A DNA stretch of 64,000 bases from Candidatus Omnitrophota bacterium (lineage in GTDB: Bacteria > Omnitrophota > Gorgyraeia > Zapsychrales > JBAZNR01): contig JBAZNR010000003.1 in the NCBI GenBank assembly GCA_041649175.1, positions 79,449 through 143,448 on the forward strand, read 5' to 3'. The notes under the pieces were generated by a model. It saw only the letters and a list, made by a program, of their open reading frames with translations, had not been told where the DNA came from and did no database searches. Each line of letters opens with the position of its first letter. Position 1 is the stretch's first letter. Of the stretch, positions 3,208 through 51,201 are shown piece after piece. Position numbers and translations under genes: made by a program.

Positions 3208-3760
3208 TGAGATCACCAACGGTATTGTTCTGCGCGTGGAAGGGGAACTTTACCTCGTTGTTGATTATAGCCATGTGAAACCCGGCAAGGGCAGCGCGTT
3301 TGTTCGGGTCAAATTGAAGAAAATGAAAACCGATTTGGTGATCGAACGCACCTATCGGACTGCGGAGCGCCTGGAAGATGTTTTTATGGAAGAGCGCCGT
3401 TTTCAATATCAATACAACGCCGGCGATACGTTCCACTTTATGGATCAAACAACATTTGAAGAAATTGCTGTTTCCCGGGATGTTCTAGGGGAAAAAGTTA
3501 TTGATTATTTGCAGGATAACCTTGAATTGATCGCGGTTTACTGTGACAATAAATTGATGAAAATCCATTTGCCCAACTTTATTGTTGCGCAAATTACGGA
3601 AGCTGAGCCTGGATTTAAAGGAGATTCCTCCCGCGCTGGAACTAAACCCGCCAAAATTGCCACCGGAGCAACTGTTCAAGTCCCTCTTTTTATTAATCCT
3701 GGTGAATGGGTAAAGATCGACACGAGAACCGACCAATATGTGGAAAGGGTACAGAAATGA
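3194..3760 (+). CDS. efp: elongation factor P
   Basis: 188 aa. ...VKPGKGSAFVRVKLK... with conserved Lys in the KPGKG loop. Typical EF-P length and three-domain pattern. Confidence 0.9.
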   Translation: MLSINEITNGIVLRVEGELYLVVDYSHVKPGKGSAFVRVKLKKMKTDLVIERTYRTAERLEDVFMEERRFQYQYNAGDTFHFMDQTTFEEIAVSRDVLGEKVIDYLQDNLELIAVYCDNKLMKIHLPNFIVAQITEAEPGFKGDSSRAGTKPAKIATGATVQVPLFINPGEWVKIDTRTDQYVERVQK

Positions 3761-4218
3761 ATTTAAAAGAGATTAAAGAGATGATTAATCTCATGAATGA
3801 AAACGGCCTGACTGAATTAGAAATCGAACGAGAAGGAACAAAGATCAAGATCAAGAAAGGTTCGGGCGCCGGCGGTGAGTCGGTTGTTTTTGCCCCTGCC
3901 GAATATCGCGTTGAATCTGCCGCTTCTAGCGCTTCTGCCGCATCCCGCCAGGCCCAAGAACAAAAAATTACCAGCAACTTAAAAGAAATTTCATCCCCGA
4001 TGGTCGGAACATTTTATCGTGCTCCATCACCGGAAGCGGCACCTTTTGTTCAAGTAGGCCAGGTGGTCGAAATAGGCCAAGTGGTTTGCATTATTGAAGC
4101 TATGAAGCTGATGAACGAAATCAAATCTGAAATTCGCGGAAAAGTTACGGAAGTCTCTGTTGAAAATGCCGAACCGGTTGAGTTCGGCCAAACCTTGTTT
4201 GTTGTCGAGCCGGTTTAA
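3757..4218 (+). CDS. accB: acetyl-CoA carboxylase biotin carboxyl carrier protein
   Basis: MNLKEIKEMINLMNENGLTELEIE start (ATG 3757 overlapping the efp stop), Ala/Ser-rich linker, and C-terminal biotinyl domain with the EAMKLMNEI (AMKM) motif. Confidence 0.85.
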   Translation: MNLKEIKEMINLMNENGLTELEIEREGTKIKIKKGSGAGGESVVFAPAEYRVESAASSASAASRQAQEQKITSNLKEISSPMVGTFYRAPSPEAAPFVQVGQVVEIGQVVCIIEAMKLMNEIKSEIRGKVTEVSVENAEPVEFGQTLFVVEPV

Positions 4219-4221
4219 CGT

Positions 4222-5595
4222 ATGTTTTCTAAAATACTGATTGCTAATCGAGGCGAGATCGCCTTGCGCGTCATTCGGGCGTGCAAAGAACTCAATATCC
4301 GCACCGTAGCAGTGTATTCAAAAGCCGATCGTGAATCTCTTCATGTGCGCTTTGCCGACGAAGCAGTTTGTATCGGCGATGCCCCCAGCAAAGAAAGTTA
4401 TTTAAACATTCCCGCTATTATTTCCGCTGCCGAAATTACCGATGTGGAAGCTATCCATCCCGGATATGGTTTCCTTTCTGAAAATGCCCACTTTGCCGAG
4501 ATCTGCGAATCGTGCCACATTACATTTATCGGTCCCACGCCGCAAACGATCCGGGCGATGGGCGATAAAGTTGCGGCGCGCGAAACTATGCGAAAGATCG
4601 GTGTTCCGCTTTGTCCCGGAGGCGATTCGACCGTTAAAAGCAAAGAAGAGGCCATTAAGATCGCCAAGAAGATAAAATATCCCGTCATTATTAAAGCAGC
4701 AGCCGGCGGGGGCGGTAAGGGCATGCGCGTTTGTCATAATGATATTAGCTTGGTCAGTTCGGTAACATTAGCGCAGAATGAAGCCGAAGTCGCGTTTGGT
4801 AATCCGGCAGTTTACATTGAGAAATATATTAATGATCCGCGCCATGTGGAATTTCAGATCATGGCTGATAATTACGGCCATATTATTCATTTGGGCGAAC
4901 GGGATTGCAGTATTCAGCGCCGGCATCAAAAGCTATTGGAAGAATCCCCTTCGCCGGCTTTAGATGAAAAACTGCGCCGTAAGATCGGCGAAGTGGCGGT
5001 TAAGGGCGCCAAGGCTGTTAATTACCGGGGAGTAGGGACCATTGAGTTTTTGCTTGATTCGGACGGTTCATTTTATTTTATGGAAATGAATACACGCGTT
5101 CAAGTGGAGCACCCCGTGACTGAAATGGTAACCGGGATCGACATTGTTAAGCAGCAAATTTGTTTAGCTGCCGGGGCCAAGCTTAAGATCAAACAAGATG
5201 ACGTGAAGCTCAAAGGTGCCGCTATTGAATGCCGCATCAATGCCGAAGATCCGGAAAATAATTTTATGCCGTGCCCGGGAAAAATTGAATCATTGAATTT
5301 GCCCGGTGGCCCGGGCGTACGAGTCGACACGCATATTTATCCCGGCTACGTCATTAGCCCGTTTTACGATTCGATGGTTGCTAAGCTCATCACATACGGT
5401 AGAAATCGAGATGAAGCCATCAGGATTATGCTACGCGCCTTAGAAGAATTTTATATCAGCCCTATCAAGACAACAATTCCTTTACATATTGAAATATTGA
5501 ATAATCCGTCATTTCTTAAAGGGCAGGTTTCAACCCATTTCTTAGAAAAACTTGCAAAAACGGAAACTGAGGCTAGTAAAGATGGAAGAAAATAA
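4222..5595 (+). CDS. accC: acetyl-CoA carboxylase biotin carboxylase subunit
   Basis: [33 protein letters not shown]..., ATP-grasp motifs, GGGGKGMR. 457 aa, sits directly after accB. Confidence 0.9.
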
Positions 5596-9813: not shown

Positions 9814-10503
9814 ATGAAATTTAGGATTTATATTATCGGTGTCATTGTGAATCTTTCCTTGATCAGTCTCATTGCTGGTTGTGTCAGCACGGCGGATTAT
9901 AAGATCGACCAGCCTTCCGCATCAAAGATCTCAAAACAGGGAATTTACCATAAGGTTAGACCTGGCGAAACGCTTTGGCGCATCGCTAAACTCTACGGCG
10001 TTGATGTTGATGATATCATTCAAAGTAACCGTATTCCGAATGTCGCCCATATTGAAAAAGACCAGCTTATTTTTATTCCCGGCGCGGAAAACGAAAAAAA
10101 GACCACAACGGATGCAAGCGGTCCGAATACCGCAAGCGATACTGAATTTCTTTGGCCGCTAAAGGGTAAAGTTATTTCTTATTTTGGTGATGCTAAAGGC
10201 GCTGAGATCAATAGCGGTATTGATATCCAGTTTGAAGGCGAAGGAATTGTTTGCGCGGCTCGCGGCGGAGAAGTTGTTTTTGCCGATTTTTTAACAGGTT
10301 ATGCGCAGACCATTATTTTAGACCACGGGGACGGCTTTTTTACTGTCTACGGAAAAAATACACGTCTTTCGGCGAGAGTTGGCGACCGTGTTGCTCGGGG
10401 TAGCGCCATTGCGTTGTTAGAGAAGAATGATCCGTCATCATTTTTGCATTTTGAAGTCCGAAAGGGCGGTCAATCTAAAAATCCGCTTTATTATTTGCCA
10501 TAA
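9814..10503 (+). CDS. LysM + M23-family peptidase lipoprotein (NlpD-like)
   Basis: Signal peptide with lipobox LIAGC, LysM motif (YHKVRPGETLWRIAKLYGVDVDDII), and C-terminal M23 domain (GIDI...G..V.A...G.V...). Confidence 0.8.
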   Translation: MKFRIYIIGVIVNLSLISLIAGCVSTADYKIDQPSASKISKQGIYHKVRPGETLWRIAKLYGVDVDDIIQSNRIPNVAHIEKDQLIFIPGAENEKKTTTDASGPNTASDTEFLWPLKGKVISYFGDAKGAEINSGIDIQFEGEGIVCAARGGEVVFADFLTGYAQTIILDHGDGFFTVYGKNTRLSARVGDRVARGSAIALLEKNDPSSFLHFEVRKGGQSKNPLYYLP

Positions 10504-10504
10504 T

Positions 10505-12139
10505 ATGAACACATTTGAAATTGAAAATAGTTTCTTTGGACGAAAATCGGTTCTAGAGCTTCTTAAAAGGCGTGTGATCGACCTTAAAGAAGGCTATCGG
10601 CAAAACGTTGCTTTCTTGGGGAACCGTTATGTGGGCAAAAGTTCTATTCTGCGAAGATTTATCCATGATTTAGACGATAAAGATATTATCGAGATCTATC
10701 TCGATCTTGATAACAGCGAATCTGATTATGTGTTCACGAAATTCTCGGCAAGCCTGTTGTATAATTTTTCCCGTTGTAAAGGCCTTCCGTTGCACGACGA
10801 TCTTGACCTCTTGATCGAGTCAACCAAGAAATTTATTCCACAGACGATCGAATCGATCAAAAAGATCCAAGCAAATTTCTTAAAGGGTAAAATAGCGGAA
10901 GCGTACCGTGACCTTATTTCTTTGCCGGAAGTCTTTACTCTCGAGGCGGGGAAATTCTGCATTTTGATGATCGATGAATTCCATAATTTGGAAGACCTTA
11001 CCATTCCAAACGCTTTTCAAGAGCTTGGTAAAAAGATCATGACGCAAAAGCGCTGCCTTTATATCGTGGCAAGCTCGCAAGAAGCGCTCGCTAAAAAGAT
11101 CTTAACGGAAAAGCTCTCTCTTTTGTTCGGTAACTTTGAAGTTGTGAACGTCGAACCGTTTGATCTGAAGACCAGCCAGGAATTTATTCAGTCGCATTTA
11201 GGGCCGATCAAGATCGGAGCGAATTTAAAGAACTTTTTAGTGGATTTTACCGGAGGCCATCCGTTTTATTTAAGTTATATTTGCCAGGAGTTAACGGCTC
11301 TTAGCGCACTTCATCGTCAGGAAGAAATTTATTTGCCTATTCTGATCCAGGCCATTGAAAATACCATTTTTAATCCTTGGGGTGTTTTAGGGCGCCACTT
11401 TGAATTATTAGTGACACAACTTTGCAGTAAAAACAATCGGATGATCGCACCCGTCCTTTTCGCGCTTGCGGGAGGAAAACACAAGTTGGAAGACATCATC
11501 AAGGACTTGGAAATCAAAAAGCCTTTGGCGCTGCAAAAAATTAACCGATTAGTTGAGCAGGGCATTGTTATCCGTAACGGGAATTTCTATTATCTTCAAG
11601 ACAAGCTTTTTAGATATTGGATCAAATATGTTTATCAAAAGCGTCTTAAGGCGGTCGACGGGACAATAGACCGGCAGAAGCGCTTGTTCCATGAAGAATT
11701 TGAGCGCTTGGTTAATGATTTTCGAAATGTTTCGCAAAAAGATCTGCCGTCGCGCGTTGTGGAATTGCTGCATTGTTTTGATAATGAGGCATTCCAAATC
11801 AACGGCCGAAAATATAAACTGCCTCTTTTTGAAAAGATCGTGGCTGTTCCGCTTAAAGGCCTCGAAAATAAAAATTTTCAGATGATCAAGGCTTCCAGCG
11901 GCGAGGGCGCTTGGTACATTGTCCTCAAAGAGGCTACTTTACAGGAAATGGACGTGAATACTTTTCTCGCGGAATCAGCAAACTTAAGCGAAAAGCCTCA
12001 GCGGCGCTTGATCATTTCGCTTAATGAGCTTGATGATAATGCGCGGCTTAAGGCGCTTCAGGAAAAGATGTGGATCTGGAGCGAAAGTGAATTAAATACG
12101 TTACTTAATTTTTACGATAAACCTTATATTGTCCGATGA
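10505..12139 (+). CDS. AAA ATPase of the archaeal-type ATPase family with a C-terminal DUF234-like domain
   Basis: Walker A GNRYVGKSS and Walker B ILMIDEFHNL. The overall FGR..EL..L...GY....V.G.RRxGKS layout matches PF01637-like ATPases, with a long C-terminal extension. ATG 10505 follows the M23 stop directly. Confidence 0.55.
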   Translation: MNTFEIENSFFGRKSVLELLKRRVIDLKEGYRQNVAFLGNRYVGKSSILRRFIHDLDDKDIIEIYLDLDNSESDYVFTKFSASLLYNFSRCKGLPLHDDLDLLIESTKKFIPQTIESIKKIQANFLKGKIAEAYRDLISLPEVFTLEAGKFCILMIDEFHNLEDLTIPNAFQELGKKIMTQKRCLYIVASSQEALAKKILTEKLSLLFGNFEVVNVEPFDLKTSQEFIQSHLGPIKIGANLKNFLVDFTGGHPFYLSYICQELTALSALHRQEEIYLPILIQAIENTIFNPWGVLGRHFELLVTQLCSKNNRMIAPVLFALAGGKHKLEDIIKDLEIKKPLALQKINRLVEQGIVIRNGNFYYLQDKLFRYWIKYVYQKRLKAVDGTIDRQKRLFHEEFERLVNDFRNVSQKDLPSRVVELLHCFDNEAFQINGRKYKLPLFEKIVAVPLKGLENKNFQMIKASSGEGAWYIVLKEATLQEMDVNTFLAESANLSEKPQRRLIISLNELDDNARLKALQEKMWIWSESELNTLLNFYDKPYIVR

Positions 12140-12627
12140 AAATAGGCATTATTTCCGATACGCATTCTAAACCGATCCCAAAACAGCCATTGGAGGACTT
12201 TAAAAAAGTCGATTTTATTATCCATGCGGGAGATTTTTGTTCGGTTGATGTCATTGAACAATTAAAAAGCATTAAGGAATTAAAAGGCGTTTACGGAAAT
12301 ATGGACGGCGCTGATATCAGAAAGATCTTTCCGCGCAGCCAGATCATCAAATGCGGAAAGTTTTCTATCGGGCTTTTTCACGGGGAAGGGGCTCCGGCAG
12401 GTTTATTGGATGTCGTCAAAGAAGAATTCAAAAATAAGAAAGTTGATGTGGTTATTTTTGGCCATTCGCATCGCTCGATGAATGAAAGAATCGGCGACGT
12501 TTTATATTTTAATCCGGGAAGCCCCAATGACCATGTTTTTGCTCCGTGTTGTTCTTACGGCATTTTGGATATTGATGAGGAGATCACCGGGAAGATCATA
12601 AAAATAAAGGATGCTGCGCATGGATAA
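12136..12627 (+). CDS. metallophosphoesterase, YfcE/MJ0936 family
   Basis: IISDTHS, IHAGDF, GNMDG and FGHSH metal-binding motifs. 163 aa. The ATG overlaps the upstream stop (ATGA). Confidence 0.75.
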   Translation: MKIGIISDTHSKPIPKQPLEDFKKVDFIIHAGDFCSVDVIEQLKSIKELKGVYGNMDGADIRKIFPRSQIIKCGKFSIGLFHGEGAPAGLLDVVKEEFKNKKVDVVIFGHSHRSMNERIGDVLYFNPGSPNDHVFAPCCSYGILDIDEEITGKIIKIKDAAHG

Positions 12628-13111
12628 ACTTTGGGCGCCTTGGCGCCTCAAATATGTTTCAAGCCTAGCTAAGAAAACGAAGGGTTGTGTTTTCTGCCGG
12701 ATCCAGCGCAGCAAAGATGATAAGAAAAATTATGTATTTTTGCGGACGAAGCATTCGTTTAGCGTGCTAAATATTTATCCGTACAATAACGGCCATGTCC
12801 TGGTCATGCCGAACCGTCATGTCAATGATCTTTCAAAAATGACTTCTGCGGAAAAAGCAGACCTATTTCAGCTAATGGAAAAAACACAAAATGTTATTGC
12901 CTGCGCTCTTTCTCCCCGGGGATTTAATATCGGCATTAATGTTGGGCGCGCCGCTGGGGCAGGTTTTCCGGGGCATATTCATATTCATATTGTTCCCCGA
13001 TGGATGGGCGATATGAATTTCATGCCGATTACAGGAAACACAAAAGTTATTTCTCAGTCACTAGATATGCTTTATCAAGTTTTAAAAAAATGCGCACACG
13101 CCAAGAAATAG
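12611..13111 (+). CDS. HIT-family protein, Ap4A phosphorylase-like (Rv2613c-type)
   Basis: LWAPWRLKYV..., CVFC, VLNIYPYNNGHVLVMP, GFNIGINVGRAAGAGFPGHIHIHIVPRWMGDMNF: histidine-triad motif HIHIHIV and the LW.PWR..Y N-terminus typical of the Ap4A-phosphorylase HIT branch. The alternative start at 12620 is in the same frame. Confidence 0.7.
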   Translation: MLRMDKLWAPWRLKYVSSLAKKTKGCVFCRIQRSKDDKKNYVFLRTKHSFSVLNIYPYNNGHVLVMPNRHVNDLSKMTSAEKADLFQLMEKTQNVIACALSPRGFNIGINVGRAAGAGFPGHIHIHIVPRWMGDMNFMPITGNTKVISQSLDMLYQVLKKCAHAKK

Positions 13112-14262
13112 AAGCCTTAGAAGAAAAGAATCTCGCCTGTTTTGCGATGAAAAGCAAAGACTCTGCCGGGCGCGTTTATAAAGAGCCAGATCACCCTACC
13201 CGAACAGCTTATCAAAGAGACCGCGACCGAATAGTTCACTGCGAAGCATTTCGCAAGCTCGAATATAAAACTCAAGTATTTACTATTTTTGAAGGGGATT
13301 ATTACCGCACTCGTTTGACGCACACGATCGAAGTGGCGCAGATCGCGCGCACCATTGGGCGCAATTTATGCTTGAATGAAGATTTGATCGAAGCCATCGC
13401 TTTGGCGCATGACCTGGGCCATCCGCCGTTCGGCCACGCAGGAGAAAATACGTTAAACGATATTATGGAAAAAGCTAAGGCGGGGAGCTTCAATCATAAT
13501 TTACGCAGTTTTGAAATTGTGACGCGTTACGAAAGAAAATATCCTGATTTTATTGGGCTTAATTTAAGTGAAGAGGTTCGTGTCGGGATCCTAAAGCACG
13601 AAACCAACTATGATAAAAGCGAAGATATCGCGCATTTAAAGCATGTTGGTCCGGTCTTGGAGGCGAAGGTCGTTGATATTGCGGATGCCTTAGCTTATTT
13701 ATCGCACGATATTGATGATGGATTAACGTCCGGGTGCATTACGGCCGACGACTTAAAAGAAAGTACTCTATGGCAAAAGGCTTCAAAATTAGTTCCAGTA
13801 AACGTTGATAAAGAGATGTTCAAGTATCAGATTGTCCGGGCTCTCATCGACGTCCAGATGAAAGATCTCTTGACGCAGTCACAGAGCAATCTTGAAAAAT
13901 GCTCTTTTGCTTCATCCGGTGAAGTCAAAGAACATCATCTCAAGAATAAGCACACGCCGGTTATCGCATTTAGCGATCTTATGAAAGAGGAGCGCGACAA
14001 ACTTCAAAAGCTTTTGCACAAGAAGTTGTATGAGCATTATCGTGTTGTGCGAATGACCGATAAGGCGCGACGGATCATTGAGGATCTATTTCGTGTTTAC
14101 GAGAATAATCCCCAGCAACTTCCTTATTCGGTTTACAATAGAAGCGAAAACTATTCAGAGATGGAGAAGTATAAGATCATTTGTAATTATATCGCCGCAA
14201 TGACAGATAGGTTTGCTTTAGATGAGCACAAAAAACTCTTTGACCCATACGAAAAGGTATAA
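13090..14262 (+). CDS. dgt: dGTP triphosphohydrolase-like HD-domain protein
   Basis: AYQRDRDRIVHCEAFRKLEYKTQVF, RLTHTIEVAQIAR, AHDLGHPPFGHAGE and DIADALAYLSHDIDD motifs of the dGTPase family. ATG 13090 lies inside the end of the HIT gene, in the same frame as the longer track ORF. Confidence 0.8.
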   Translation: MRTRQEIEALEEKNLACFAMKSKDSAGRVYKEPDHPTRTAYQRDRDRIVHCEAFRKLEYKTQVFTIFEGDYYRTRLTHTIEVAQIARTIGRNLCLNEDLIEAIALAHDLGHPPFGHAGENTLNDIMEKAKAGSFNHNLRSFEIVTRYERKYPDFIGLNLSEEVRVGILKHETNYDKSEDIAHLKHVGPVLEAKVVDIADALAYLSHDIDDGLTSGCITADDLKESTLWQKASKLVPVNVDKEMFKYQIVRALIDVQMKDLLTQSQSNLEKCSFASSGEVKEHHLKNKHTPVIAFSDLMKEERDKLQKLLHKKLYEHYRVVRMTDKARRIIEDLFRVYENNPQQLPYSVYNRSENYSEMEKYKIICNYIAAMTDRFALDEHKKLFDPYEKV

Positions 14263-15292
14263 ACTCGTTTTATCGGCCGTGCATATGGTTTACCGGCTGG
14301 TTAATTCGACGTTTAATACAAAAGAACTTTTACTGCGCTTAACGCGGTTGGTTTGCCAGCTTATCCGTGCCGACGCGTCGTATATCTATATCCTTGATCC
14401 CATCAAAAGAAGGATCGTTTTGATCGCGGCGTTCAATAACCGCATCAATATGTGGATCGAAGAAAAAAGAGAGATCGAAAAAGTCCCTCAGGAAGAAAGT
14501 GCTGTTGCTCTCGGAGAAACGATCATCAAGAAGCGTTTGATCGGTTTGCCTTTAGTCGGTGAAGATAATATCGGCGCTATTTTTATCCGCCGCAATAATC
14601 GTCAGCCGGCATTTAATGATTTTGACAGGGAAATATTATCTGTGATCGCCGAACAGGCGGTTACGGCGATCAAGAATCTTCAGCTTTACGAAGGCCAACA
14701 AAAGATCATCTTGGGAAGCATTCAATCCATTGGAAAACTTTTGGAAAAACAAGGGCACGTCTCTTTGCAGCATATTCCGGGATATTCGTCCATTGTAAAA
14801 ATGTTAGCGCAAAAACTTAATATGCGTCACGCGGATATCCAGTGCCTGGAATACGCCGGCATGCTGCATGATGCGGGTTCCATGGATGTTCCGTTTGAAA
14901 TTCTTTCAAAACGCAGCCGGCTTACGGCCGAAGAATTTAAAGTTATCCGTAATCATCCCGCCCAAAGCGCGGAGCTCATCAAACCCGTCGAGTTTCTAAA
15001 GCCTGTTTTGCCGATCATTCTTTATCATCGGGAACAATACGACGGGACCGGATATCCTTCCGGGCTAAAAAGGGAACAGATCCCGCTGGGTGCTCGCGTG
15101 ATCGCCGTTGTTGATGCTTTTGAGGCGATGATCTGCGGGCGTCCTTATAAAAAAAGGCTGTCGTTGGAAAGCGCCTTGTCCGAATTAAAGAAAAACAGCG
15201 GAACGCAGTTCGACCCCAGAGTTGTTGAAGCCTTCCACGAACTTTCTAAGCAAAAAAAGTTTAGAAAGTACTTGAGTTTGATCCGGAAATAA
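14222..15292 (+). CDS. GAF + HD-GYP domain protein (probable c-di-GMP phosphodiesterase)
   Basis: N-terminal GAF-like region, then an HD-GYP signature: HDAGS ... ILYHREQYDGTGYPSGLK. The alternative start at ATG 14285 would shorten the N-terminus. Confidence 0.7.
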   Translation: MSTKNSLTHTKRYKLVLSAVHMVYRLVNSTFNTKELLLRLTRLVCQLIRADASYIYILDPIKRRIVLIAAFNNRINMWIEEKREIEKVPQEESAVALGETIIKKRLIGLPLVGEDNIGAIFIRRNNRQPAFNDFDREILSVIAEQAVTAIKNLQLYEGQQKIILGSIQSIGKLLEKQGHVSLQHIPGYSSIVKMLAQKLNMRHADIQCLEYAGMLHDAGSMDVPFEILSKRSRLTAEEFKVIRNHPAQSAELIKPVEFLKPVLPIILYHREQYDGTGYPSGLKREQIPLGARVIAVVDAFEAMICGRPYKKRLSLESALSELKKNSGTQFDPRVVEAFHELSKQKKFRKYLSLIRK

Positions 15293-15307
15293 ATTAATAA
15301 TAGACAT

Positions 15308-15970
15308 ATGAATATTAATTATAAGCAATCGCAATTCGAACTATTTCCGGCTTCTGCGGGACATACGGAAAAAGAAGAAAAACCTAGATACTTTTTTTCC
15401 AGCCTTACGCTTTCTTTAGAAAATGTTGCGGTCGTAGGTATTTTTGTTCTTTTAAGCGTTATTGTTTCGTTTTCTTTTGGTGTTGAAAGAGGCAAAAGAA
15501 TTGCGGTGGCAACGCCTAAAAGTATAAAAGAAATTCCCGCTCCAACACCGGCTGTTAATTCAAAAAATGTATTTTCTCCCAGTGACAATAAAGTCATAAC
15601 GATGAATACCAAAGCGGTGACGACAAAACAATTAGTTGTCAATAAAACGGCATTGCCGATCGTTGCCGCCCAGAACAAAAATCAACAAATTGCAAAATTG
15701 TTACCGGCTGTTAATTCTCCGGCTGTTGCGCGTCAAGACATTAAACTTTCCTCGGGCGCTTATACCATCCAAGTGGCTTCGTATAAAAAGATCGAGGTTG
15801 CCCGCAGAGAAGCCGGACGCCTTACAGGCAAGGGGCATGATATTTTTGTGCTTCCCAAGGGAAATTATGCTATCATTTGTGTCGGAAAGTTTTCCAATGA
15901 AGGCCAGGCAAAAGCATTGCTGAGCAAATTAAGACAAACATACAAAGACTGTTTAGTAAGGAGATTGTAA
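15308..15970 (+). CDS. SPOR-domain membrane protein (cell-division/peptidoglycan-binding)
   Basis: TM segment near the N-terminus, a low-complexity linker, and a C-terminal SPOR-like fold (YTIQVASYKKIEVARREAGRLTGKGHDIFVLPKGNYAIICVGKFSNEGQAKALLSKL). Confidence 0.65.
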   Translation: MNINYKQSQFELFPASAGHTEKEEKPRYFFSSLTLSLENVAVVGIFVLLSVIVSFSFGVERGKRIAVATPKSIKEIPAPTPAVNSKNVFSPSDNKVITMNTKAVTTKQLVVNKTALPIVAAQNKNQQIAKLLPAVNSPAVARQDIKLSSGAYTIQVASYKKIEVARREAGRLTGKGHDIFVLPKGNYAIICVGKFSNEGQAKALLSKLRQTYKDCLVRRL

Positions 15971-16248
15971 TGTCGATACACCCCTCTTTAAGAATTGATC
16001 CGGCGGCGGCCAAACAACGTTCTGTTTTGTCGCGCATTGAACGTATTAAAGACCTAATGAAAAAAGGGCTTTGGTCGGATAAACACGATGTGACCGGTTT
16101 ACCTAAAACACGAGTTACTCGCATTAAAGCTAAAAAAGCTGCCAAAGCCGCTGCCCCCGAAAGCGCAACGGCTGCCGCTCCCGGTTCAGCTGCTGCCGCA
16201 AAAACTGCAGCCGCTGCTTCAGCCGCGGATGCAAAAACCAAAAAATAA
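15970..16248 (+). CDS. small basic protein with Ala/Lys-rich tail (resembles the PVC-group small basic protein family)
   Basis: MSIHPSLRI...RSVLSRIERIKDLMKKGLW...GLPKTRV core followed by an AKKAAKAAAP...AAAAS histone-H1-like tail. AAGGAG RBS. The ATG overlaps the upstream stop (TAATG). Confidence 0.4.
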   Translation: MSIHPSLRIDPAAAKQRSVLSRIERIKDLMKKGLWSDKHDVTGLPKTRVTRIKAKKAAKAAAPESATAAAPGSAAAAKTAAAASAADAKTKK

Positions 16249-16251
16249 CGA

Positions 16252-17037
16252 ATGACCCTCAGAAGCGTCTGCTTGTTATTGGTGTTGTGTTTTCTGTGCG
16301 TCAACGCATGGGCAGAGCAGCAATTTCCTTTCCTTGGCACGATCACCGAAGATAATGTTAATGTGCGCTCCGGCCAGGATATCAGCTTTGAAAAGCTGGG
16401 ACAGCTAAAAAATGGCCAGGACGTTGTTGTGGTCGAGAAAAGTTACGATTGGTATAGAATAAAACTTCCGGACGGGTCTTTAGCGTATATAAGCGATAAA
16501 TTCGTGAGGACAACCATCGCGGACGTGGGTGTTGTTGCCGGAAATCATGTTAACGTCCGGGCAGGAGCCGGAGAAAAATTTAATGTGATCGGCCGCTTGG
16601 ATCGCGATACTAAAGTAAAAGTTCAAGCCAGGGAATCCGGCTGGTGCAAGATCGAACCAATGGAAGGCATTTATGGCTGGGTTTCTGCCAATTTTGTTGC
16701 TTTTAAATCTGCCGATATTCCTGCTCCTAAGGTCATCGCCGAGCCTCCTCGTAGTATTTATCCACGGCCAAAACCGGAATCAGAAAAACCCAAAGAGCCG
16801 GAATTATTTATTGCCGTCGGTCAGATCCAGGATCTGGGCCGGCATTTACCGGCAAAAGATCTTCGGTACAAGCTGACGGTCGATAATAAAACGGTTTATT
16901 ACTTGCGCGGCGCTAAAGAAGTTATCGATCCGTTCGTGAAAAGAAAAGTTAAACTGCAGGGAAATGTCACGCCGGATCCGACCCGTCAATTCACCTATCC
17001 GATCATCTCCGTTGTTAAGATTGAATTAGCTCCATGA
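16252..17037 (+). CDS. secreted protein with two bacterial SH3 (SH3b) domains
   Basis: Signal peptide (LLLVLCFLCVNAWA). Two repeats of the pattern VNVRSG...G.L..G..V.V......W.KI (positions about 35-95 and 100-160). Pro/Lys-rich linker and a C-terminal domain. Confidence 0.55.
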   Translation: MTLRSVCLLLVLCFLCVNAWAEQQFPFLGTITEDNVNVRSGQDISFEKLGQLKNGQDVVVVEKSYDWYRIKLPDGSLAYISDKFVRTTIADVGVVAGNHVNVRAGAGEKFNVIGRLDRDTKVKVQARESGWCKIEPMEGIYGWVSANFVAFKSADIPAPKVIAEPPRSIYPRPKPESEKPKEPELFIAVGQIQDLGRHLPAKDLRYKLTVDNKTVYYLRGAKEVIDPFVKRKVKLQGNVTPDPTRQFTYPIISVVKIELAP

Positions 17038-45084: not shown

Positions 45085-47286
45085 TTAAGCTTTAGATAAT
45101 TTTTCCGCTTGCGCCTGAATATCTTTGGCGAGAGTTTTTCCGATTTGAGGGATTTGGGCGAGTTCATCGAGGCCGGTAAGCTTAAGGTCAGAAAGCCGTT
45201 TAAAACCTTTGGAGAAAAGATTTCGAGCGCGAACGCGTCCCACACCTTTCAGGCTTACTAATTCCAAAAGTTCTTCGCGAATTCCGTAATGAACCTGACG
45301 GCGCAGGTCTTCTAAGGTAAACGTTAAATTGCGGAATTTAAAAAGGTCCGCGATCACACCGGCCGCGTAAAGGATCCATCCGGTGGATTCCACGTGACGG
45401 TGAATGTCACCGGGCCCGACGCCAAAATCATCGCAAAGCGTTTCTTCCTTTTCTTCATTGATCCAACGGTAGAGAAGTTGTGTTGTTTTAAGAGAAGCTA
45501 AATAAAAATAAAGGTCTTCTAAGGCCGCCACATCGTTTTGCGTTACGATCAGGCTGTCGTGATTGCCATCGGCGAACTGTTCCAACTTTTCATAATCATC
45601 TTTTCCGATATGGAGAAGTTCTGAATCAGGACAGCAGCAGCTTAAGTGCAAAAGCCCTATCGCGGAAAATGATCTTTTCTCTTCCGCTTTCTTTAATCCG
45701 TCGCGCAAAATAATTCCGGTCAAAGGATCAATATAAAGGCGGCTTACACATTGGCCGAACGGTGTGGCAAAATATTTAAATCCGTTTTTCTCCACAAAAT
45801 CTTCCTTGTGAAGAAAATCAAAGATCTGGCTGATCATTTCGATCAAATTTCCGGTGCGTTTTTGATGCGCCAGAAAGGTGTGTGAAATAAATTCGAACAT
45901 TTCATTGATATCATGAACATATCCGGCGGCAATGGACGATAAAATGTGCATACGAAGCGCTGATTCATTATCTAGCTTTGAAATGACGGGCTCAGTTTTG
46001 GCGTTGATGTAACGGTCAAACAAGGCACTTGATTCCGAAAATGTTTTGGCAATAATAACGGCTTCGCCGTATTCGTCATATTTGGGCCGTCCGGCGCGTC
46101 CGGCGCATTGTTTATATTCAAAGGCCGGAATGTAAGCGGCACCAATACCTGCTTCATAACGTTTGCAATCGCGGATAATGGCTCTTCGGGCGGGGAGGTT
46201 AACGCCCGCCGCCAAAGTCGGCGTTGAGCAAATTACTTTGATAAGATTTTTCTTAAAACTATTTTCAATAAGTTTTCTTTGACCTGGTTTTAATCCGGCG
46301 TGATGAAAAGCGGCGCCGCAAACAATAACATCGGCTAATTTCCGGCAAATTTTTGTGGATTCATCGCGCGAACCAAGAATTTCTTTGGCAATGCGGGCGA
46401 GTTCTGCTTTTTCTTCCGGTGTTAACACCATAGCGGAAACTTCACTGACCAAGCGGCTGGCGGCTTGCGCGGAACGCCGGCTATTCACAAAAACCAAAAC
46501 CTGTCCTTTACCGCGCAAAGTATCAAGGGTAAGTTTGCTGACATCATCTTCGGGTTCTTCTTTAACAAGGCGCACGCCGTGTTTGTTAAAAACGATCTGC
46601 TCGTTAAAATAAACACCTTCTTTTAAGGGAACCGGACGCCAATCGCTGGTGACAAGCTCTGCTCCCAGCCAATCGGCCATTTCCTGGGCATTGCTGACCG
46701 TAGCGCTTAAAGCTAATATCTGAACGTTTGCGTTAAGCTGCTTGATGCGGGCGGTTAATATCTCTAAAGTGGGCCCGCGGGAACCGTCATTGATAAAATG
46801 AATTTCGTCTAAGACAACAACCTTTAAATTATGGATAAGCCATTTAGCCCGGAAACGTAAAAGCGAATCAACTTTTTCGGCGGTGGCGATGAGGATCTGA
46901 TAGCGGTTAAGGAAATTTGTGGGGCTGTCAAAATCTCCGGTGGCGATGCCGACTTTAATTCCCAGGGGCTCATATTTTTCTTTAAATTCGTCGAATTTTT
47001 CACTGGCTAAGGCTTTTAAAGGAGCGATGTAAAGGCAACGGGCATCATCTTGCAGAATGGCTTTGATCATACACAGCTCGGCAATGAGTGTTTTTCCGGC
47101 GGCGGTGGGAATAGCCAAGAGCAGATTTTTGCCTTCCAAGACGCCTTTTTCAATGGCGGCTTCTTGAGGAGGATAAAAGTTTTTGATGCCCGAATCAGTG
47201 ATGATTTTGGTCGCGGAAGCGGGGAAATTATGCTTTTGTAAAAGTTCTTCGGCGTTCATAGGAATAATAGGCATTACTTCTAACAT
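45085..47286 (-). CDS. Hel308/Ski2-like superfamily-2 DNA helicase
   Basis: 733 aa. Motif I AIPTAAGKT, motif II VVLDEIH, SAT, a winged-helix/ratchet region and a C-terminal helix-hairpin-helix domain (LVSLKGVGRVRARNLFSKGF...LAQIPQIGKTLAKDI), as in archaeal Hel308. The only long minus-strand gene in the window apart from exeAB. Confidence 0.75.
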   Translation of the reverse strand: MLEVMPIIPMNAEELLQKHNFPASATKIITDSGIKNFYPPQEAAIEKGVLEGKNLLLAIPTAAGKTLIAELCMIKAILQDDARCLYIAPLKALASEKFDEFKEKYEPLGIKVGIATGDFDSPTNFLNRYQILIATAEKVDSLLRFRAKWLIHNLKVVVLDEIHFINDGSRGPTLEILTARIKQLNANVQILALSATVSNAQEMADWLGAELVTSDWRPVPLKEGVYFNEQIVFNKHGVRLVKEEPEDDVSKLTLDTLRGKGQVLVFVNSRRSAQAASRLVSEVSAMVLTPEEKAELARIAKEILGSRDESTKICRKLADVIVCGAAFHHAGLKPGQRKLIENSFKKNLIKVICSTPTLAAGVNLPARRAIIRDCKRYEAGIGAAYIPAFEYKQCAGRAGRPKYDEYGEAVIIAKTFSESSALFDRYINAKTEPVISKLDNESALRMHILSSIAAGYVHDINEMFEFISHTFLAHQKRTGNLIEMISQIFDFLHKEDFVEKNGFKYFATPFGQCVSRLYIDPLTGIILRDGLKKAEEKRSFSAIGLLHLSCCCPDSELLHIGKDDYEKLEQFADGNHDSLIVTQNDVAALEDLYFYLASLKTTQLLYRWINEEKEETLCDDFGVGPGDIHRHVESTGWILYAAGVIADLFKFRNLTFTLEDLRRQVHYGIREELLELVSLKGVGRVRARNLFSKGFKRLSDLKLTGLDELAQIPQIGKTLAKDIQAQAEKLSKA

Positions 47287-47339
47287 AAAAGGGAAGCGAT
47301 GTCAATGAAGCCAGCGTTATCTCTTCGTCGTTTATTTTA

Positions 47340-47368
47340 TTGACCGGAAAATTTAAAGCTATTATAAT
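47340..47368 (+). promoter_or_regulatory. sigma70-like promoter for dtd
   Basis: TTGACC (47340-47345), 17-nt spacer, TATAAT (47363-47368). Confidence 0.45.
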
Positions 47369-47428
47369 CTTAAAGTATTGAATTTAAATATATTTAGAAA
47401 TATTCTTGTCATCCCGCCGGAGAGTTTT

Positions 47429-47872
47429 GTGAAATTAGTTATTCAAAGAGTTAAAAGCGCCGAAGTTGCCGTTGACAAACAAATTGTCGGGAAGATCAAG
47501 GCAGGAATGCTTGTATTTTTAGGCATTGCCAAAGGCGACGGCGACAGGGAAGTTGATTATCTTACCGAAAAGATCCTTCAATTACGTATTTTTGATGACG
47601 CGCAAGGTAAAATGAACCGCTCTATTCAGGAAGCGGGCGGGGAATTTTTAGTCGTTTCGCAGTTCACACTTTTGGGAGATTGTGATAAAGGCCGCCGCCC
47701 GTCTTTCGACGGAGCGGCGGCCCCTCATTTAGCCGAATCGCTCTATAACCAGTTCGTGGAAAAACTCCGTAGCTTTGGCGTGAAAGTGGAAACCGGAAAA
47801 TTCCAGGCGATGATGGACGTTTCTTTGGTGAATGATGGCCCCGTCACCTTCATTTTAGAGAGTAGAAGTTAA
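47429..47872 (+). CDS. dtd: D-aminoacyl-tRNA deacylase
   Basis: VKLVIQRVKSAEVAV...GMLVFLGIAKGD...SQFTLLGD...NDGPVTFILES (SQFTL and NxGPxT motifs). GTG 47429 gives the canonical N-terminus. The track ORF starts at an upstream in-frame TTG, inside the predicted promoter. Confidence 0.8.
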   Translation: MKLVIQRVKSAEVAVDKQIVGKIKAGMLVFLGIAKGDGDREVDYLTEKILQLRIFDDAQGKMNRSIQEAGGEFLVVSQFTLLGDCDKGRRPSFDGAAAPHLAESLYNQFVEKLRSFGVKVETGKFQAMMDVSLVNDGPVTFILESRS

Positions 47873-47906
47873 AAAAGTACGTGTCCCCGGAAATTCAAAA
47901 TTGATA

Positions 47907-48064
47907 TGAGGCGATGTCGAGAGATTATTCATGTGCTGCTGATCCAGCAGCAAAGTACTCAGAGGCTCACTTAAGCCGTATGGATCATTGATGTTTGCAA
48001 TTTCTTGCATCTTTGATTCTTGCATCAAGGGCAGTAAGCAAAAATAGTTCTCGACGTCGCCTTA
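47907..48064 (+). ncRNA. candidate retron msr-msd non-coding RNA
   Basis: The segment GGCGATGTCGAGAG (47910-47923) pairs with TTCTCGACGTCGCC (48048-48061), with two G-U pairs, and the stem is extendable to about 17 bp. This is an a1/a2-like arrangement ending 9 nt before the RT ATG. Internal stem-loops include TGCTGCTG-ATC-CAGCAGCA (47934-47952), GGCT-CACTTA-AGCC and a TTGATG...CATCAA hairpin carrying a TCTTGCATC direct repeat. Confidence 0.5.
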
Positions 48065-48073
48065 GGATTTATA

Positions 48074-49552
48074 ATGAACATTAAATTAAATAAGTCAGCC
48101 AATGTTCTTAAAGAAAAATTCAATGCTTTACAGTCAAATTACGACCTAGCGAATTTGCTGGAAATTCCATATGCACATCTAACATATTATTTATACGGCA
48201 TTAAGGAGGAAAGAAAATATACACAAATTCAAATACCAAAACGAAGGAGCGGCAGTAGAACAATTTCTATTCCTTCTGATGGCTTAAAAATAATACAGGG
48301 GAAGTTGAATCAAATTTTTCAAGCCGTGTATGTTCCGCGATTTTGTGTGTTTAGCTACATCAAAGGCGGAGATATTGTTAAAAACGCTCGAAAACATTCT
48401 GGTCGAAAATATGTTTTTAAGATAGATTTAGAAAATTTCTTTCCTTCAATTAATTTTTGGCGAGTTCGCGGTATGTTCAAGGCCAATCCGTATAGTAAAA
48501 ATGATGAAATCTCTACCGCATTAGCTAAGCTATGCTGTCTCAAGGATGAACTCCCTCAGGGGGCTCCTACCTCACCGATTATTTCAAATATGATTTGCCG
48601 AAAAATGGATTCTGAACTTATAGGTTTGGCTAGAGAAAACCGATGCGACTATACGCGATACGCTGATGACTTAGTTTTCTCCACTTCTCTCAGAAATTTT
48701 CCAGTGGATATAGCTGTGGTGAAGTCAGGCGAAGTTTTTCCGGGAGAAGAGTTGGTAAACGTAATTACTGGGAATTTCTTTAAAATTAACTTGAATAAAG
48801 TTCGGCTTCAGACTGCAAATCGCCGGCAAATTGTTACAGGGTTAGTTACTAACAAAATTGTTAATGTGAAGCGGAATTATTTAAATCAAATTAGGGCAAT
48901 GATTCATGCTTGGGATAAATTTGGATTTAACGAAGCCGAAAAAGTTTTTCAAGATAAATTTGATAAATATCGAGCTGTATTTAAGGCTCTTCCCTCATTT
49001 CGCTGGGTCGTAGGGGGGAAAATTGAATTCGTTGGCTTTGTGAGGGGCAGGGAAAGCAAAGTTTATCGATTGCTGAAATATCAATTTCGCAAGCTAATTG
49101 CCAGAGATTTTCCAGGAGAAAGAGAGAAAATAATGAGTCATGAGTTTTCTGCTTTTATCTGTCATGCTAGCGAGGATAAAAAGGCCATTGCAAAACCACT
49201 CGAGAAGCGACTTATCGGCAAGGGTTTTGATGTCTGGTTTGATGAGAGTCAGCTTCGAGTGGGAGATAGTTTGAGGGCAAAGATTGATGGTGGATTGAGG
49301 AAATCGAAATATGGAATTGTTATTTTATCTAAATCTTTCTTTGAAAAGAAATGGCCACAAGCGGAGCTTGATGCGTTAGTCACCTTGCAAAATACTGATG
49401 GCAGGAAGAGGATACTTCCTATCTGGTATAATATTGAGCAAGCTGATGTTGAAGCGTTTAGCCCTATGTTAGCAGCGCTTGTTGGCTTGCGAACTAAAAT
49501 TCTACATCTTGATGAAATTGTTGAAAAATTAGCGGACGAGCTAAAAAACTAA
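48074..49552 (+). CDS. retron-type reverse transcriptase fused to a C-terminal TIR domain
   Basis: RT motifs: RTISIPSDGLKIIQGKLNQIF, KIDLENFFPSI, LPQGAPTSPIISNM, YTRYADDLVFS, and NRRQIVTGLVTNK containing the VTG triplet characteristic of retron RTs. The C-terminal 135 aa (FICHASEDKKAIAKPLEKRLIGKGFDVWFDESQLRVGDSL...YGIVILSKSFFEKKWPQAELDAL) follow the TIR-domain pattern including the conserved Glu. Coding GC is about 25-35%, well below the flanks. Confidence 0.85.
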   Translation: MNIKLNKSANVLKEKFNALQSNYDLANLLEIPYAHLTYYLYGIKEERKYTQIQIPKRRSGSRTISIPSDGLKIIQGKLNQIFQAVYVPRFCVFSYIKGGDIVKNARKHSGRKYVFKIDLENFFPSINFWRVRGMFKANPYSKNDEISTALAKLCCLKDELPQGAPTSPIISNMICRKMDSELIGLARENRCDYTRYADDLVFSTSLRNFPVDIAVVKSGEVFPGEELVNVITGNFFKINLNKVRLQTANRRQIVTGLVTNKIVNVKRNYLNQIRAMIHAWDKFGFNEAEKVFQDKFDKYRAVFKALPSFRWVVGGKIEFVGFVRGRESKVYRLLKYQFRKLIARDFPGEREKIMSHEFSAFICHASEDKKAIAKPLEKRLIGKGFDVWFDESQLRVGDSLRAKIDGGLRKSKYGIVILSKSFFEKKWPQAELDALVTLQNTDGRKRILPIWYNIEQADVEAFSPMLAALVGLRTKILHLDEIVEKLADELKN

Positions 49553-49589
49553 TAATCTGCTAGTAATTTCTAGGATGCGCGCTTAATTC

Positions 49590-49700
49590 ATGGCTAAGTT
49601 TATCGACACTCACGTTCATCTTGATCAAGTCGAAAGCATTACCGAAGGAAAAACTTGGCTTAGCCGCGTCGAAGGGTTTATTGTGGAGAGTAAGAGTTAG
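49590..49700 (+). pseudogene. truncated duplicate of the tatD 5' end (36 codons)
   Basis: MAKFIDTHVHLDQVESITEGKTWLSRVEGFIVESKS-stop aligns with the intact TatD N-terminus at 50425 (MLKLIDTHAHLDQIENITEELKLAVQAGVEAVV). 14 of the first 19 residues are identical. Shared nucleotide blocks are atcgacactcacg and cattaccgaag. Confidence 0.5.
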
Positions 49701-49717
49701 CAATTAAGCAAAGTGTC

Positions 49718-49734
49718 CGTGAGGTTGCCTCACG
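49718..49734 (+). terminator. short hairpin plus T-rich tract after the tatD fragment
   Basis: CGTGAGG-TTG-CCTCACG followed by ...GTTATTTTAAATT. Confidence 0.3.
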
Positions 49735-49790
49735 TAGAGCGTTATTTTAAATTCAAGGAATGACGAGAAATAATACAGGGGTAGCTTAAA

Positions 49791-50384
49791 ATGGAATTAA
49801 TATTCTTTATTTCAATTGTTATTGTGGGCGTTATAACTACCGTAATTAGTTTTATCCCATCAAAGAAGATGCTAAAAGGTATTAAAATTACACTTTTTGT
49901 CGTAATAATCCTATGCCTAATATTCCAAGCTTGGTATGGATGGAACGACAAAAAAGCATCTCACGTTAAAGATCTTAAAGATGCATGGTACCAAGATGAA
50001 TCCTTGCGGGGTCAAGCATTAATTTCGGACGATATCAGGCAACTTAAAGACAAGGAAAAGAAGGGGCTGTTAAGCGGCGATGATTATTTGTTATACATAG
50101 CAAGGTATTTAGAAAGCATTGATCAAACTTTAAAATTTCGAGATGGGAAGAATACTTGGGAATGGATTACTGCATATTATAATGAAGTAAGTAAAATTCC
50201 TTCATATTTTTCTTTGGCGGATTGGAAGGAAGCGGAGAAGTTAATTTATGGTTCAATGGTTAATGAGATTGATGATCATTTTGCGGCCAGAGGAAGATCC
50301 GGAGGTGGGGTACGACCGAAAGTACTAGAGATATTTAAAACAGAACGCGAAAGAACTATAAAAGCAAAAGAGCTGGAAAAATGA
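49791..50384 (+). CDS. hypothetical protein with two N-terminal TM helices and a charged cytoplasmic domain
   Basis: MELIFFISIVIVGVITTVISFI...ITLFVVIILCLIFQAWYGW, then a 140-aa soluble domain with no motif I recognise. Low GC like the RT gene. Confidence 0.4.
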   Translation: MELIFFISIVIVGVITTVISFIPSKKMLKGIKITLFVVIILCLIFQAWYGWNDKKASHVKDLKDAWYQDESLRGQALISDDIRQLKDKEKKGLLSGDDYLLYIARYLESIDQTLKFRDGKNTWEWITAYYNEVSKIPSYFSLADWKEAEKLIYGSMVNEIDDHFAARGRSGGGVRPKVLEIFKTERERTIKAKELEK

Positions 50385-50424
50385 GAGTAACAGATTTTGA
50401 ATTTTGGGAATGTATACCTAACTT

Positions 50425-51201
50425 ATGTTAAAACTCATCGACACTCACGCCCACTTGGATCAGATTGAAAACATTACCGAAGAACTAAAGCTTGCCGTGC
50501 AGGCGGGGGTTGAGGCAGTGGTGGCGGTTGGCGTTGACTTAAAATCCAATCAGAAAAATTTGGAGCTTAAAGGCAAAGCACAAACGCCGAAAATATTTAC
50601 CGCGCTGGGCATTCATCCGCAAAGTTTGGAAGTTTTTGATGAAGAGGAAATTGAAAAAGGCATTCGGTTTATCCGCGAACATATTAAAGACGCGATCGCT
50701 ATTGGCGAAATTGGTTTAGATTTTTGGTATAAGTGGGCCAAGAAAGACGAAATAAAAAAAGAACAGCAACGCGCTATTTTTAAACGCCAACTTGAAATTG
50801 CCGCAGAATTTAATTTGCCCGCTATTATTCACAGCCGCGGTACGTGGAAAGAATGTTTAGATATGGCTCAGGCCGCCGGCATCAAGAAAGCCAACTTTCA
50901 TTGGTATAGCGGCCCGGAGGATATTTTGGATGAAATTATAAAGTGTGGGTATTTTATCTCCGCGTCTCCCGCGGTTGCCGGCAGTCCTCAGCATCAAAAA
51001 GCAGTTTTGCATGTTCCCATTGAACAGCTGCTCATTGAAACGGATTCGCCCGTATTCTACAGAGAAGGCGAAAATGGTTTTCGTGCCGGGCCTAAAGATG
51101 TCGCGCGCACCTTAAAGCATTATTGCGCGCTGACGAGTATGGCACCGGACAAAGCGGCGGAAATCTTTTATCAAAACTCAAAAAGGTTTTTTGCGATATA
51201 G
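50425..51201 (+). CDS. tatD: TatD-family metal-dependent hydrolase/DNase
   Basis: LIDTHAHLD, AIGEIGLDF, IHSRG, ETDSP motifs. 258 aa. Confidence 0.85.
   Translation: MLKLIDTHAHLDQIENITEELKLAVQAGVEAVVAVGVDLKSNQKNLELKGKAQTPKIFTALGIHPQSLEVFDEEEIEKGIRFIREHIKDAIAIGEIGLDFWYKWAKKDEIKKEQQRAIFKRQLEIAAEFNLPAIIHSRGTWKECLDMAQAAGIKKANFHWYSGPEDILDEIIKCGYFISASPAVAGSPQHQKAVLHVPIEQLLIETDSPVFYREGENGFRAGPKDVARTLKHYCALTSMAPDKAAEIFYQNSKRFFAI

Follow-up and report, generated by a model that had tools for sequence, protein, structure and literature searches.

A two-transmembrane protein gene beside a type XII retron in Omnitrophota, the probable survivor of a decayed serine-recombinase element

Genes and features at the locus

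The gene that we analyzed (49791 to 50384, + strand) is located in a 64-kb stretch of DNA from a Candidatus Omnitrophota metagenome-assembled genome; the whole stretch is referred to below as the window. The gene starts with ATG and encodes a protein of 197 amino acids, called the 2TM protein here, and it is the sole intact gene of what is probably a relic unit. On its 5' side lie the neighboring gene dtd (47378-47872), a candidate retron ncRNA whose long terminal stem resembles a1/a2 (47907 to 48068, + strand), and an RT-TIR gene of a type XII retron (48074 to 49552, + strand). The RT-TIR and 2TM genes are set apart by a repeat of the 5' end of tatD, a hairpin, and a remnant of an HTH_17 gene. 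GC content was 0.34-0.36 in the 2TM gene and 0.34-0.42 in the RT-TIR gene, compared with 0.42-0.47 in the flanks, confirming the low GC common to the two genes that had been pointed out in an earlier, sequence-only reading of this DNA.

The same reading had described an open reading frame of 197 codons with two N-terminal transmembrane helices, and this description was borne out by the ORF itself, by hydropathy, and by structure prediction. Hydropathy analysis gave two hydrophobic segments, at about residues 3-23 and 30-52. AlphaFold2, supplied with a 42-sequence alignment of the family, returned a model with a pLDDT of 80.2 and a pTM of 0.43, in which the first helix spans residues 2-21 and the second spans residues 29-91, so that the second transmembrane segment and the following stalk form one helix of 63 residues. 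The stalk is followed by a head of four helices (residues 96-196), with pLDDT exceeding 90 over residues 131-160. The head is also the best-conserved part of the protein over the wide 2TM family, with the pattern '...YY.EV.KIP.YF...EWKE.EK.IY...ERER..KAKER'. Y129, P137, W145, and E149 are invariant in the 42-sequence alignment, and all four are kept in the protein of the window.

The part of the protein after the second helix had been described as a charged cytoplasmic domain without a recognizable motif. Its charge was confirmed (27 K/R and 27 D/E among the 145 residues from 53 to 197), as was the lack of a family match, but the cytoplasmic location was not supported. The loop between the two helices carries a charge of +4/0 in the protein of the window, and +2 to +4 with few acidic residues across the family, while the charge after the second helix is mixed. 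Because the loop is positive and the stretch after the second helix is mixed, the positive-inside rule favors a topology with the C-terminus out, and the head would then lie outside the cytoplasm rather than inside.

Remote homology searches and structure prediction yielded an all-helical model and no family or fold match. Nothing above threshold was found in Pfam, NCBIfam, PADLOC, or PHROGs; the protein matched no PDB sequence and gave no match in Foldseek, and its AlphaFold2 model resembled nothing in BFVD or PDB. PADLOC gave matches at chance level only for the protein of the window, and two of the 42 family members marginally matched the generic PADLOC '2TM effector' model (8e-4). Profile scans with Pfam and PADLOC detected no nucleotide-sensing or other sensor domain. 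A sub-threshold match to PF13826 (Monooxy_af470-like) was seen in 8 of the 42 members (3.7e-5 at best; the one member that was checked scored 16.8 bits, the cut-off being 25), and it was rejected since the confident AlphaFold2 model is all-helical.

The family is small. A word-indexed search retrieved 22 homologs, all of them about 195-200 amino acids long and aligned over the full length, with identities of 43-78%. The named homologs come from Candidatus Omnitrophota metagenome-assembled genomes, as does the window; for this phylum, 176 complete genomes have been reported (bioRxiv 10.64898/2026.06.07.730766). When a profile was searched against 1.84 billion cluster representatives, 52 clusters only were found at E<=1e-3. 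The viral contigs of IMG/VR contained no relative.

A recombinase module and its remnants at tatD

We recovered 17 distinct genomic contexts of the family, which are the window and 16 others; the comparison loci are metagenome contigs, three of them named as Omnitrophota. In eight of the 17 contexts (L002, L008, L012, L013, L014, L015, L016, and L018), the 2TM gene was the middle gene of a trio in the order HTH_17, 2TM, and large serine recombinase (LSR). The HTH_17 protein has 58-63 residues and is excisionase/AlpA-like, and the LSR has about 590 residues with Resolvase, Recombinase, and Zn_ribbon_recom domains. The HTH_17 stop codon precedes the 2TM start by 1-6 nt, and the 2TM stop overlaps the LSR start as ATGA or TAGTG; judging from this arrangement, the three genes appear to be translationally coupled. 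The 2TM proteins of these trios are 59-78% identical to the protein of the window over about 100% of its length.

A D5_N/Pox_D5 primase-helicase is encoded upstream in L002, L008, L014, and L011, and the upstream region of L018 carries defense cargo (a restriction R subunit, a PLDc_2 (PLD) nuclease, and a trypsin-like protease). From these gene orders, the trio appears to form the end of integrative elements that carry either a D5-type primase-helicase or defense cargo. In L002/L017 and in L013 the LSR gene adjoins miaB, and its last codons overlap the 5' end of miaB in another frame, which fits a habit of targeting the 5' ends of genes. In L017, the 8 kb searched on the upstream side contained no left-end copy of miaB, and no attL or attR could be defined for any of the intact elements.

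In the other nine contexts, the 2TM gene had no adjacent LSR gene. Neighbors in these regions include genes for type III restriction-modification, SduA_C, ThsB_TIR, PDDEXK, AAA_13, a caspase-helicase, and a methyltransferase, and all-against-all BLAST of the neighbors revealed none that these contexts have in common. Neither HTH_17 nor LSR relics were detectable beside the orphan copies of L004, L005, L019, L021, L028, L030, and L031. In L032, an island at the same miaB site, HTH_17 was kept, the LSR gene was gone, and the 2TM gene was located at the other end of the island. Neighborhood mapping over the 17 contexts thus placed the homologs in mobile elements and defense islands, and not in housekeeping surroundings. 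The 2TM family is small and unannotated, and it is consistently tied to mobile and defense DNA.

In the window, both partners of the trio were found as remnants. The 3' end of an HTH_17 gene is left at 49752 to 49784 (+ strand), where the frame reads ..KE*REIIQG*, compared with KEWRETLKG* in intact elements, the tryptophan codon having become a stop. In an anchored ungapped comparison, the 30 nt before its TAG (49782-49784) were identical to the end of the HTH_17 gene of L012 at 25 of 30 positions (p~2e-9), and blastn-short aligned the relic at 86% over 36 nt. This relic also explains the GGGG at 49778-49781 (positions -13 to -10, 9 nt 5' of the ATG), which had been read as resembling a ribosome-binding site. 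The GGGG is indeed present, but it belongs to the final glycine codon region and stop of the relic gene (GGGGTAG), where intact elements have AAAGG(G/A)nTAG.

On the 3' side, the start of an LSR gene was recognized at 50381 to 50389 (+ strand), overlapping the 2TM stop codon. This sequence, ATGAGAGTA (MRV), is the LSR start of L012, L014, and L016 (MRVALYTRVSTEDQ...), and the sequences are unrelated beyond codon 3. The LSR relic is 9 nt long, with 4 of these in the stop region of the 2TM gene itself, so it is weak when considered alone; taken together with the HTH_17 relic, it becomes convincing. In an alignment of the window with four intact modules (alignment A2), homology extended from the last HTH_17 codons to LSR codon 3. 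Beyond these relics, tblastn over the 64-kb window detected no LSR, D5 primase, or HTH_17. Since the whole HTH_17 gene expected immediately upstream is reduced to a remnant of about 33 nt with an in-frame stop, and the LSR gene to three codons at the 2TM stop, the window therefore holds a remnant and not a functional module. Two separate deletions are needed to produce this layout. The promoter region 5' of HTH_17 in the intact modules (columns ~25-60 of alignment A2) is also missing in the window.

The relic unit is bracketed by two copies of tatD codons 1-19. The left copy (tatD', 49590 to 49646, + strand; MAKFIDTHVHLDQVESITE), probably the attL side or the original 5' end of the host gene, was detected by tblastn with 74% identity over 19 amino acids, and the right copy (50425 to 50481, + strand) opens the intact tatD gene (50425-51201). 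The two are identical at 42 of 57 nt (p~5e-12), and a 26-nt degenerate core of the repeat occurs exactly twice in the 64-kb window, where 0 occurrences are expected. A tatD fragment between the RT-TIR and 2TM genes had been noted from the sequence alone, together with a hairpin, and both were verified. The hairpin, CGTGAGG-TTG-CCTCACG (49718 to 49734, + strand), is located between tatD' and the HTH_17 relic, and the RNA of 49700-49790 folds at -21.4 kcal/mol (z -2.3). It lacks a T-run and was not called by the terminator scan; a role as insulator or terminator is conceivable. The promoter and terminator scan of the locus returned nothing above the shuffle expectation.

A relative, L022/L023, helped us to interpret the repeat. 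Its TatD is 64% identical to that of the window, and the downstream synteny tatD-purU-DUF2339 is conserved. It carries a tatD duplication as well (52 of 60 nt identical, with the same end codon), which encloses an unrelated pair of HTH_3 and Fic genes. Because the relative shares the duplication around different cargo, the first ~20 codons of tatD have evidently served repeatedly as an insertion point in this lineage. The sequences 5' of the left tatD copies are alike at 13 of 16 nt in the two genomes, which is only suggestive that the left copy is the original 5' end of the host gene and that the right copy came with the insert. In that case the RT-TIR gene would lie outside the unit bounded by the repeats and would have been acquired separately, between dtd and the place where tatD originally began. 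The closest tatD orthologs, at 64% identity, are too distant for an empty-site comparison at the DNA level.

The tatD repeat of att type and the relics of HTH_17 and LSR point, therefore, to an LSR module, and not the retron, as the vehicle that brought the 2TM gene. We consider it likely, with a probability of about 0.8, that the 2TM gene is the only one that a decayed integrative element has left intact and that it is independent of the retron. An element with the HTH_17/2TM/LSR module would have inserted at about codon 20 of tatD, as related Omnitrophota elements would do at the 5' ends of housekeeping genes, and the insertion would have left the duplicated 5' end of tatD on either side. 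Later deletions would have spared only the 2TM gene, about 33 nt of HTH_17, and 9 nt of the recombinase gene. As far as sequence comparison goes, the insertion at tatD and the deletions are documented by the repeats and relics themselves. The suggestion of the sequence-only reading that the gene might be an independent and possibly new module is thus supported as regards independence, and is better worded as the surviving gene of an HTH_17/2TM/LSR integration module.

Stranded remains of this kind have precedents. PICI-like and SCC-like elements are islands with an integrase and a primase that leave remnants behind. In tycheposon islands, degenerate elements, partial att copies, tandem occupants, and fragmentary integrases have been described (bioRxiv 10.1101/2020.12.28.424599). 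As in these three classes, the elements considered here combine a site-specific recombinase, an excisionase-like gene, a primase-helicase, and variable cargo, and are located beside a conserved gene, flanked on either side by part of the target sequence, while broken integrases and stranded cargo stay behind in the island. They differ in inserting at the 5' end of a protein-coding gene (tatD or miaB) instead of a tRNA gene, in using an LSR in all cases seen, and in having hosts from the phylum Omnitrophota. Nor has a counterpart been described in those elements for the 2TM gene of the integration module.

Selection on the 2TM gene and its possible role

We compared the 2TM gene with its homologs and with its module partners. 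dN/dS was 0.07-0.19 between the gene of the window and its homologs, and ranged from 0.04 to 0.19 overall, a sign of purifying selection. At the same time, its protein changes fast. In closely related modules, amino-acid change in the 2TM protein was about 3x that in HTH_17 and LSR, with dN of ~0.10-0.15 in close pairs for 2TM versus 0.015-0.05 for the two partners. The identity patterns of the three genes were not parallel. Between L002 and L008, the 2TM proteins were 82% identical versus 95% and 97% for the flanking genes, and between L002 and L015 identity was 80% for 2TM, 44% for LSR, and 57% for HTH_17. In at least two cases, the window and L032, the 2TM gene outlived the integrase. Because no partner is shared across contexts, selection is purifying, change is fast, and the gene survives without the integrase and occurs in LSR-free islands, these comparisons favor a function that is autonomous and useful to the carrier.

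For the window itself, it was considered whether the 2TM gene is a silent relic, not yet degraded and currently without function, regardless of the family's role in other genomes. The conserved promoter region 5' of HTH_17 has been deleted, promoter-like sites are no commoner than in shuffled sequences, a hairpin lies upstream, and both flanking genes are destroyed, as this explanation would predict. Against it, the frame is full-length, its start and stop fall where they do in the family, and the four invariant residues are kept; nearly all of both neighbors was removed while the 2TM gene was spared, and the outcome was the same in L032. Transcription by read-through from the RT-TIR gene or from tatD' is also possible. 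We therefore regard a silent gene as unlikely, but as the most serious of the alternatives.

A role in the service of the element, as a recombination directionality or regulatory factor, or as a membrane tether or a lysis or transfer factor, seems improbable to us. It is suggested by the position of the 2TM gene, which in eight loci is enclosed by, and coupled to, the genes for the xis-like HTH_17 protein and the LSR, and serine integrases are well known for the diversity of their recombination directionality factors. Such a role is at odds with the intact 2TM genes of the window and L032, where the LSR is gone, and of recombinase-free islands, and with L013, where conversely the LSR is intact and the 2TM gene is frameshifted. 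The identities of the 2TM protein are also decoupled from those of LSR and HTH_17, and a membrane protein with two transmembrane helices is unlikely as a cofactor of DNA recombination.

An autonomous function that benefits the carrier has parallels among known proteins of similar build and placement. Sie2009 of the lactococcal P335 phages is a superinfection-exclusion membrane protein encoded in the lysogeny module. Exclusion genes of the Ltp type likewise belong to that module, and the prophage expresses them, as in Streptococcus phage TP-J34 (PMC3952083). Like these, the 2TM protein is small and membrane-anchored, is encoded beside the integrase in the integration module (8 loci), stands without a partner gene, and varies among elements that are otherwise alike. 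Ltp is a lipoprotein, in contrast to the protein of the window with its transmembrane hairpin, and the element here is not a recognizable phage in view of the IMG/VR result, whereas Ltp and Sie are phage-borne. The 2TM protein has no sequence or fold similarity to Ltp or Sie, and more widely it matched no exclusion (Sie), Abi, or effector family by sequence or fold in PHROGs, Pfam, PADLOC, BFVD, or PDB, so that gene context is what points to exclusion.

The protein also resembles the two-transmembrane Abi effectors of type IV retrons, CBASS, Pycsar, and Thoeris, in having about 200 residues, two N-terminal transmembrane helices followed by a soluble domain, and a place in defense islands. Unlike these effectors, the family has no conserved signal-generating or RT partner and no sensor domain, and its conserved linkage is to a serine recombinase.

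By analogy with these proteins, a superinfection-exclusion or Abi-type membrane protein of the integration module is the function that we tentatively propose, at somewhat less than even odds. The 2TM protein would exclude incoming phages or rival elements, acting alone while anchored in the membrane. If the head faces the periplasm, entry of DNA might be blocked at the inner membrane; alternatively, the protein might cause abortive damage to the membrane. The fuller proposal, that it is a new single-gene exclusion system against phages or mobile elements, seen so far only in Omnitrophota-type genomes, kept by the host after decay of the element, and with its head at the periplasmic face, is slightly more doubtful still.

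The neighboring retron

The RT-TIR gene matched the PADLOC model RT-TIR_XII, which is labeled 'single gene', at 2.7e-146. Pfam assigned RVT_1 to residues 54-245 and TIR_2 to residues 361-455, and the NCBIfam model Retron_TIR_antiphage matched at 1.3e-132 with 443 bits, which is below its equivalog cut-off of 600 bits. Type XII has been defined as an RT fused to TIR_2, without an associated protein cluster (Mestre et al. 2020, PMC7736814). The neighbor at 48074-49552 is like this class in having an RT with a C-terminal TIR_2 domain and a structured RNA upstream, and a 2TM gene is not included in the single-gene class as defined. The region 47873-48073, 5' of the RT-TIR gene, folds at -64.5 kcal/mol (z -4.48), and 0 of 200 shuffled sequences were as stable; Rfam gave no match over 47300-50600. 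The structured 200 nt fits a self-contained unit of ncRNA and RT-TIR.

The sequence-only reading had offered a second effector or accessory partner of the RT-TIR gene as one role of the 2TM protein. The 2TM gene follows the RT-TIR gene at a distance of 238 bp, shares its strand, and has a similar low GC. We found no RT-TIR gene in any of the 16 other contexts of the 2TM family. The nearest RT-TIR homologs (L024-L027, about 50% identity) are also from Omnitrophota and lie in other defense islands, beside genes for DUF4917, an MvaI-type restriction-modification system, DUF4268, AIPR, and HNH; tblastn of these loci detected no member of the 2TM family. The two families also differ in spread, with about 2,000 RT-TIR homologs at E<=1e-40 across phyla versus the 52 clusters of the 2TM family.

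TIR genes of other kinds were seen near the 2TM gene in two contexts. In L019, a protein of 260 amino acids encoded directly 5' of the 2TM gene has a weak match to CAP12-PCTIR_TIR, below the Pfam threshold, and the 2TM gene of L030 is preceded, five genes upstream, by a ThsB_TIR gene. None of the eight closest trio homologs has a TIR neighbor, and we regard the TIR genes of L019 and L030 as probably reflecting their background frequency in defense islands.

Membrane effectors do occur in systems of this sort: 2TM effectors are found in type IV retrons, and type II Thoeris has the TM-Macro protein ThsA. For the window, nevertheless, a membrane disruptor that is triggered by a nucleotide signal made by the TIR domain, or any other partner of the RT-TIR gene, is highly improbable despite the closeness of the two genes and the TIR genes of L019 and L030, since the att repeat and the relics of the LSR module lie between them, the retron is of a single-gene type with its own candidate ncRNA, neither family accompanies the other in the loci compared, and the 2TM protein has no nucleotide-sensing domain.

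The tempting but false lead of a retron that combines a TIR effector with a second one in the membrane is thereby removed. The island would have two components of unrelated origin, namely a type XII retron that is complete in itself and what is left of a serine-recombinase element that inserted into the 5' end of tatD. What is defined here is a compact HTH_17/2TM/LSR module, a recurrent insertion site at about codon 20 of tatD, and a small family of membrane proteins that tracks mobile and defense DNA in a phylum that is uncultured and little studied. Should the 2TM protein indeed be an exclusion or defense protein, it would represent a new single-gene system and would also serve as a marker of island boundaries in Omnitrophota.

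Intact and rearranged 2TM modules

In the alignment of the window with four intact modules of HTH_17, 2TM and large serine recombinase (LSR) genes (A2), a highly conserved block, CTTGTATAAGGTTGTATAnTACGGTATACTGGGCAC, was found 5' of the HTH_17 gene in four elements (columns ~25-60; ~225-260 in locus L012), and TTGTATA/GGTATAC motifs were repeated within it. The block is probably the promoter/operator of the module; it is missing from the window in this alignment. The final LSR codons (..KRILLRTFGCQMNV..) overlap the 5' end of miaB in another reading frame (10250-10400 in contig L017, 2900-3000 in contig L013); either the element supplies the miaB start or the LSR tail is encoded in target DNA.

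Contig L013 shows the reverse of the state in the window: what appears to be a frameshift has broken its 2TM gene (674-1291) into two ORFs of 114 and 70 aa, and the neighbouring recombinase is intact. In another locus, L032, the 2TM and HTH_17 genes occupy opposite ends of an island between efp and miaB (10001-16806), with the HTH_17 gene adjoining miaB, and the interior of the island codes for a DUF2971-like protein of 496 aa and a caspase (Peptidase_C14)-helicase fusion of 1008 aa. This layout resembles a circularly permuted or rearranged form of the usual module.

A 2TM homolog was also found in a block that is identical in two MAGs (L005, ~2387-4883; L006, ~2643-5139), whereas the DNA upstream of the tRNA gene at which the block begins (anticodon loop CTGAAAA) is wholly different between them. 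The block spans the homolog and two further genes, whose products (131 and 266 aa) look secreted, their N-termini resembling signal peptides.

Sub-threshold Pfam matches to PF13826 (Monooxy_af470-like) were obtained for 8 of the 42 members in the family alignment (A3), at member residues ~70-135 (best E 3.7e-5). They were judged spurious and the assignment was rejected, because the AF2 model of the 2TM protein is all-helical.

Surroundings of the RT-TIR gene

The 200-nt interval that separates dtd from the RT-TIR gene (window 47873-48073, + strand) was predicted to fold at -64.5 kcal/mol, far more stably than shuffled sequences (z -4.48). The predicted fold has a long terminal stem, ~47907-47929 paired with ~48042-48068, which resembles the a1/a2 repeats of retron msr-msd RNA; no Rfam family matched these 200 nt. 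Directly upstream of dtd lies a Ski2/Hel308-like helicase gene (45085-47286, - strand; 733 aa), whose product is 30% identical, over 526 aa, to the helicase portion of the caspase-helicase of locus L004.

Duplication of the tatD 5' end

Two different Omnitrophota genomes each carry two copies of the first ~19-20 tatD codons, at 49590-49646 and 50425-50481 in the window and at 1530-1589 and 2820-2879 in L022. The end-point of the duplication is common to both, but the cargo between the copies differs, being a 2TM relic in the window and HTH_3 and Fic genes in L022. The duplication is the mark of a recurrent insertion site within a protein-coding 5' end.
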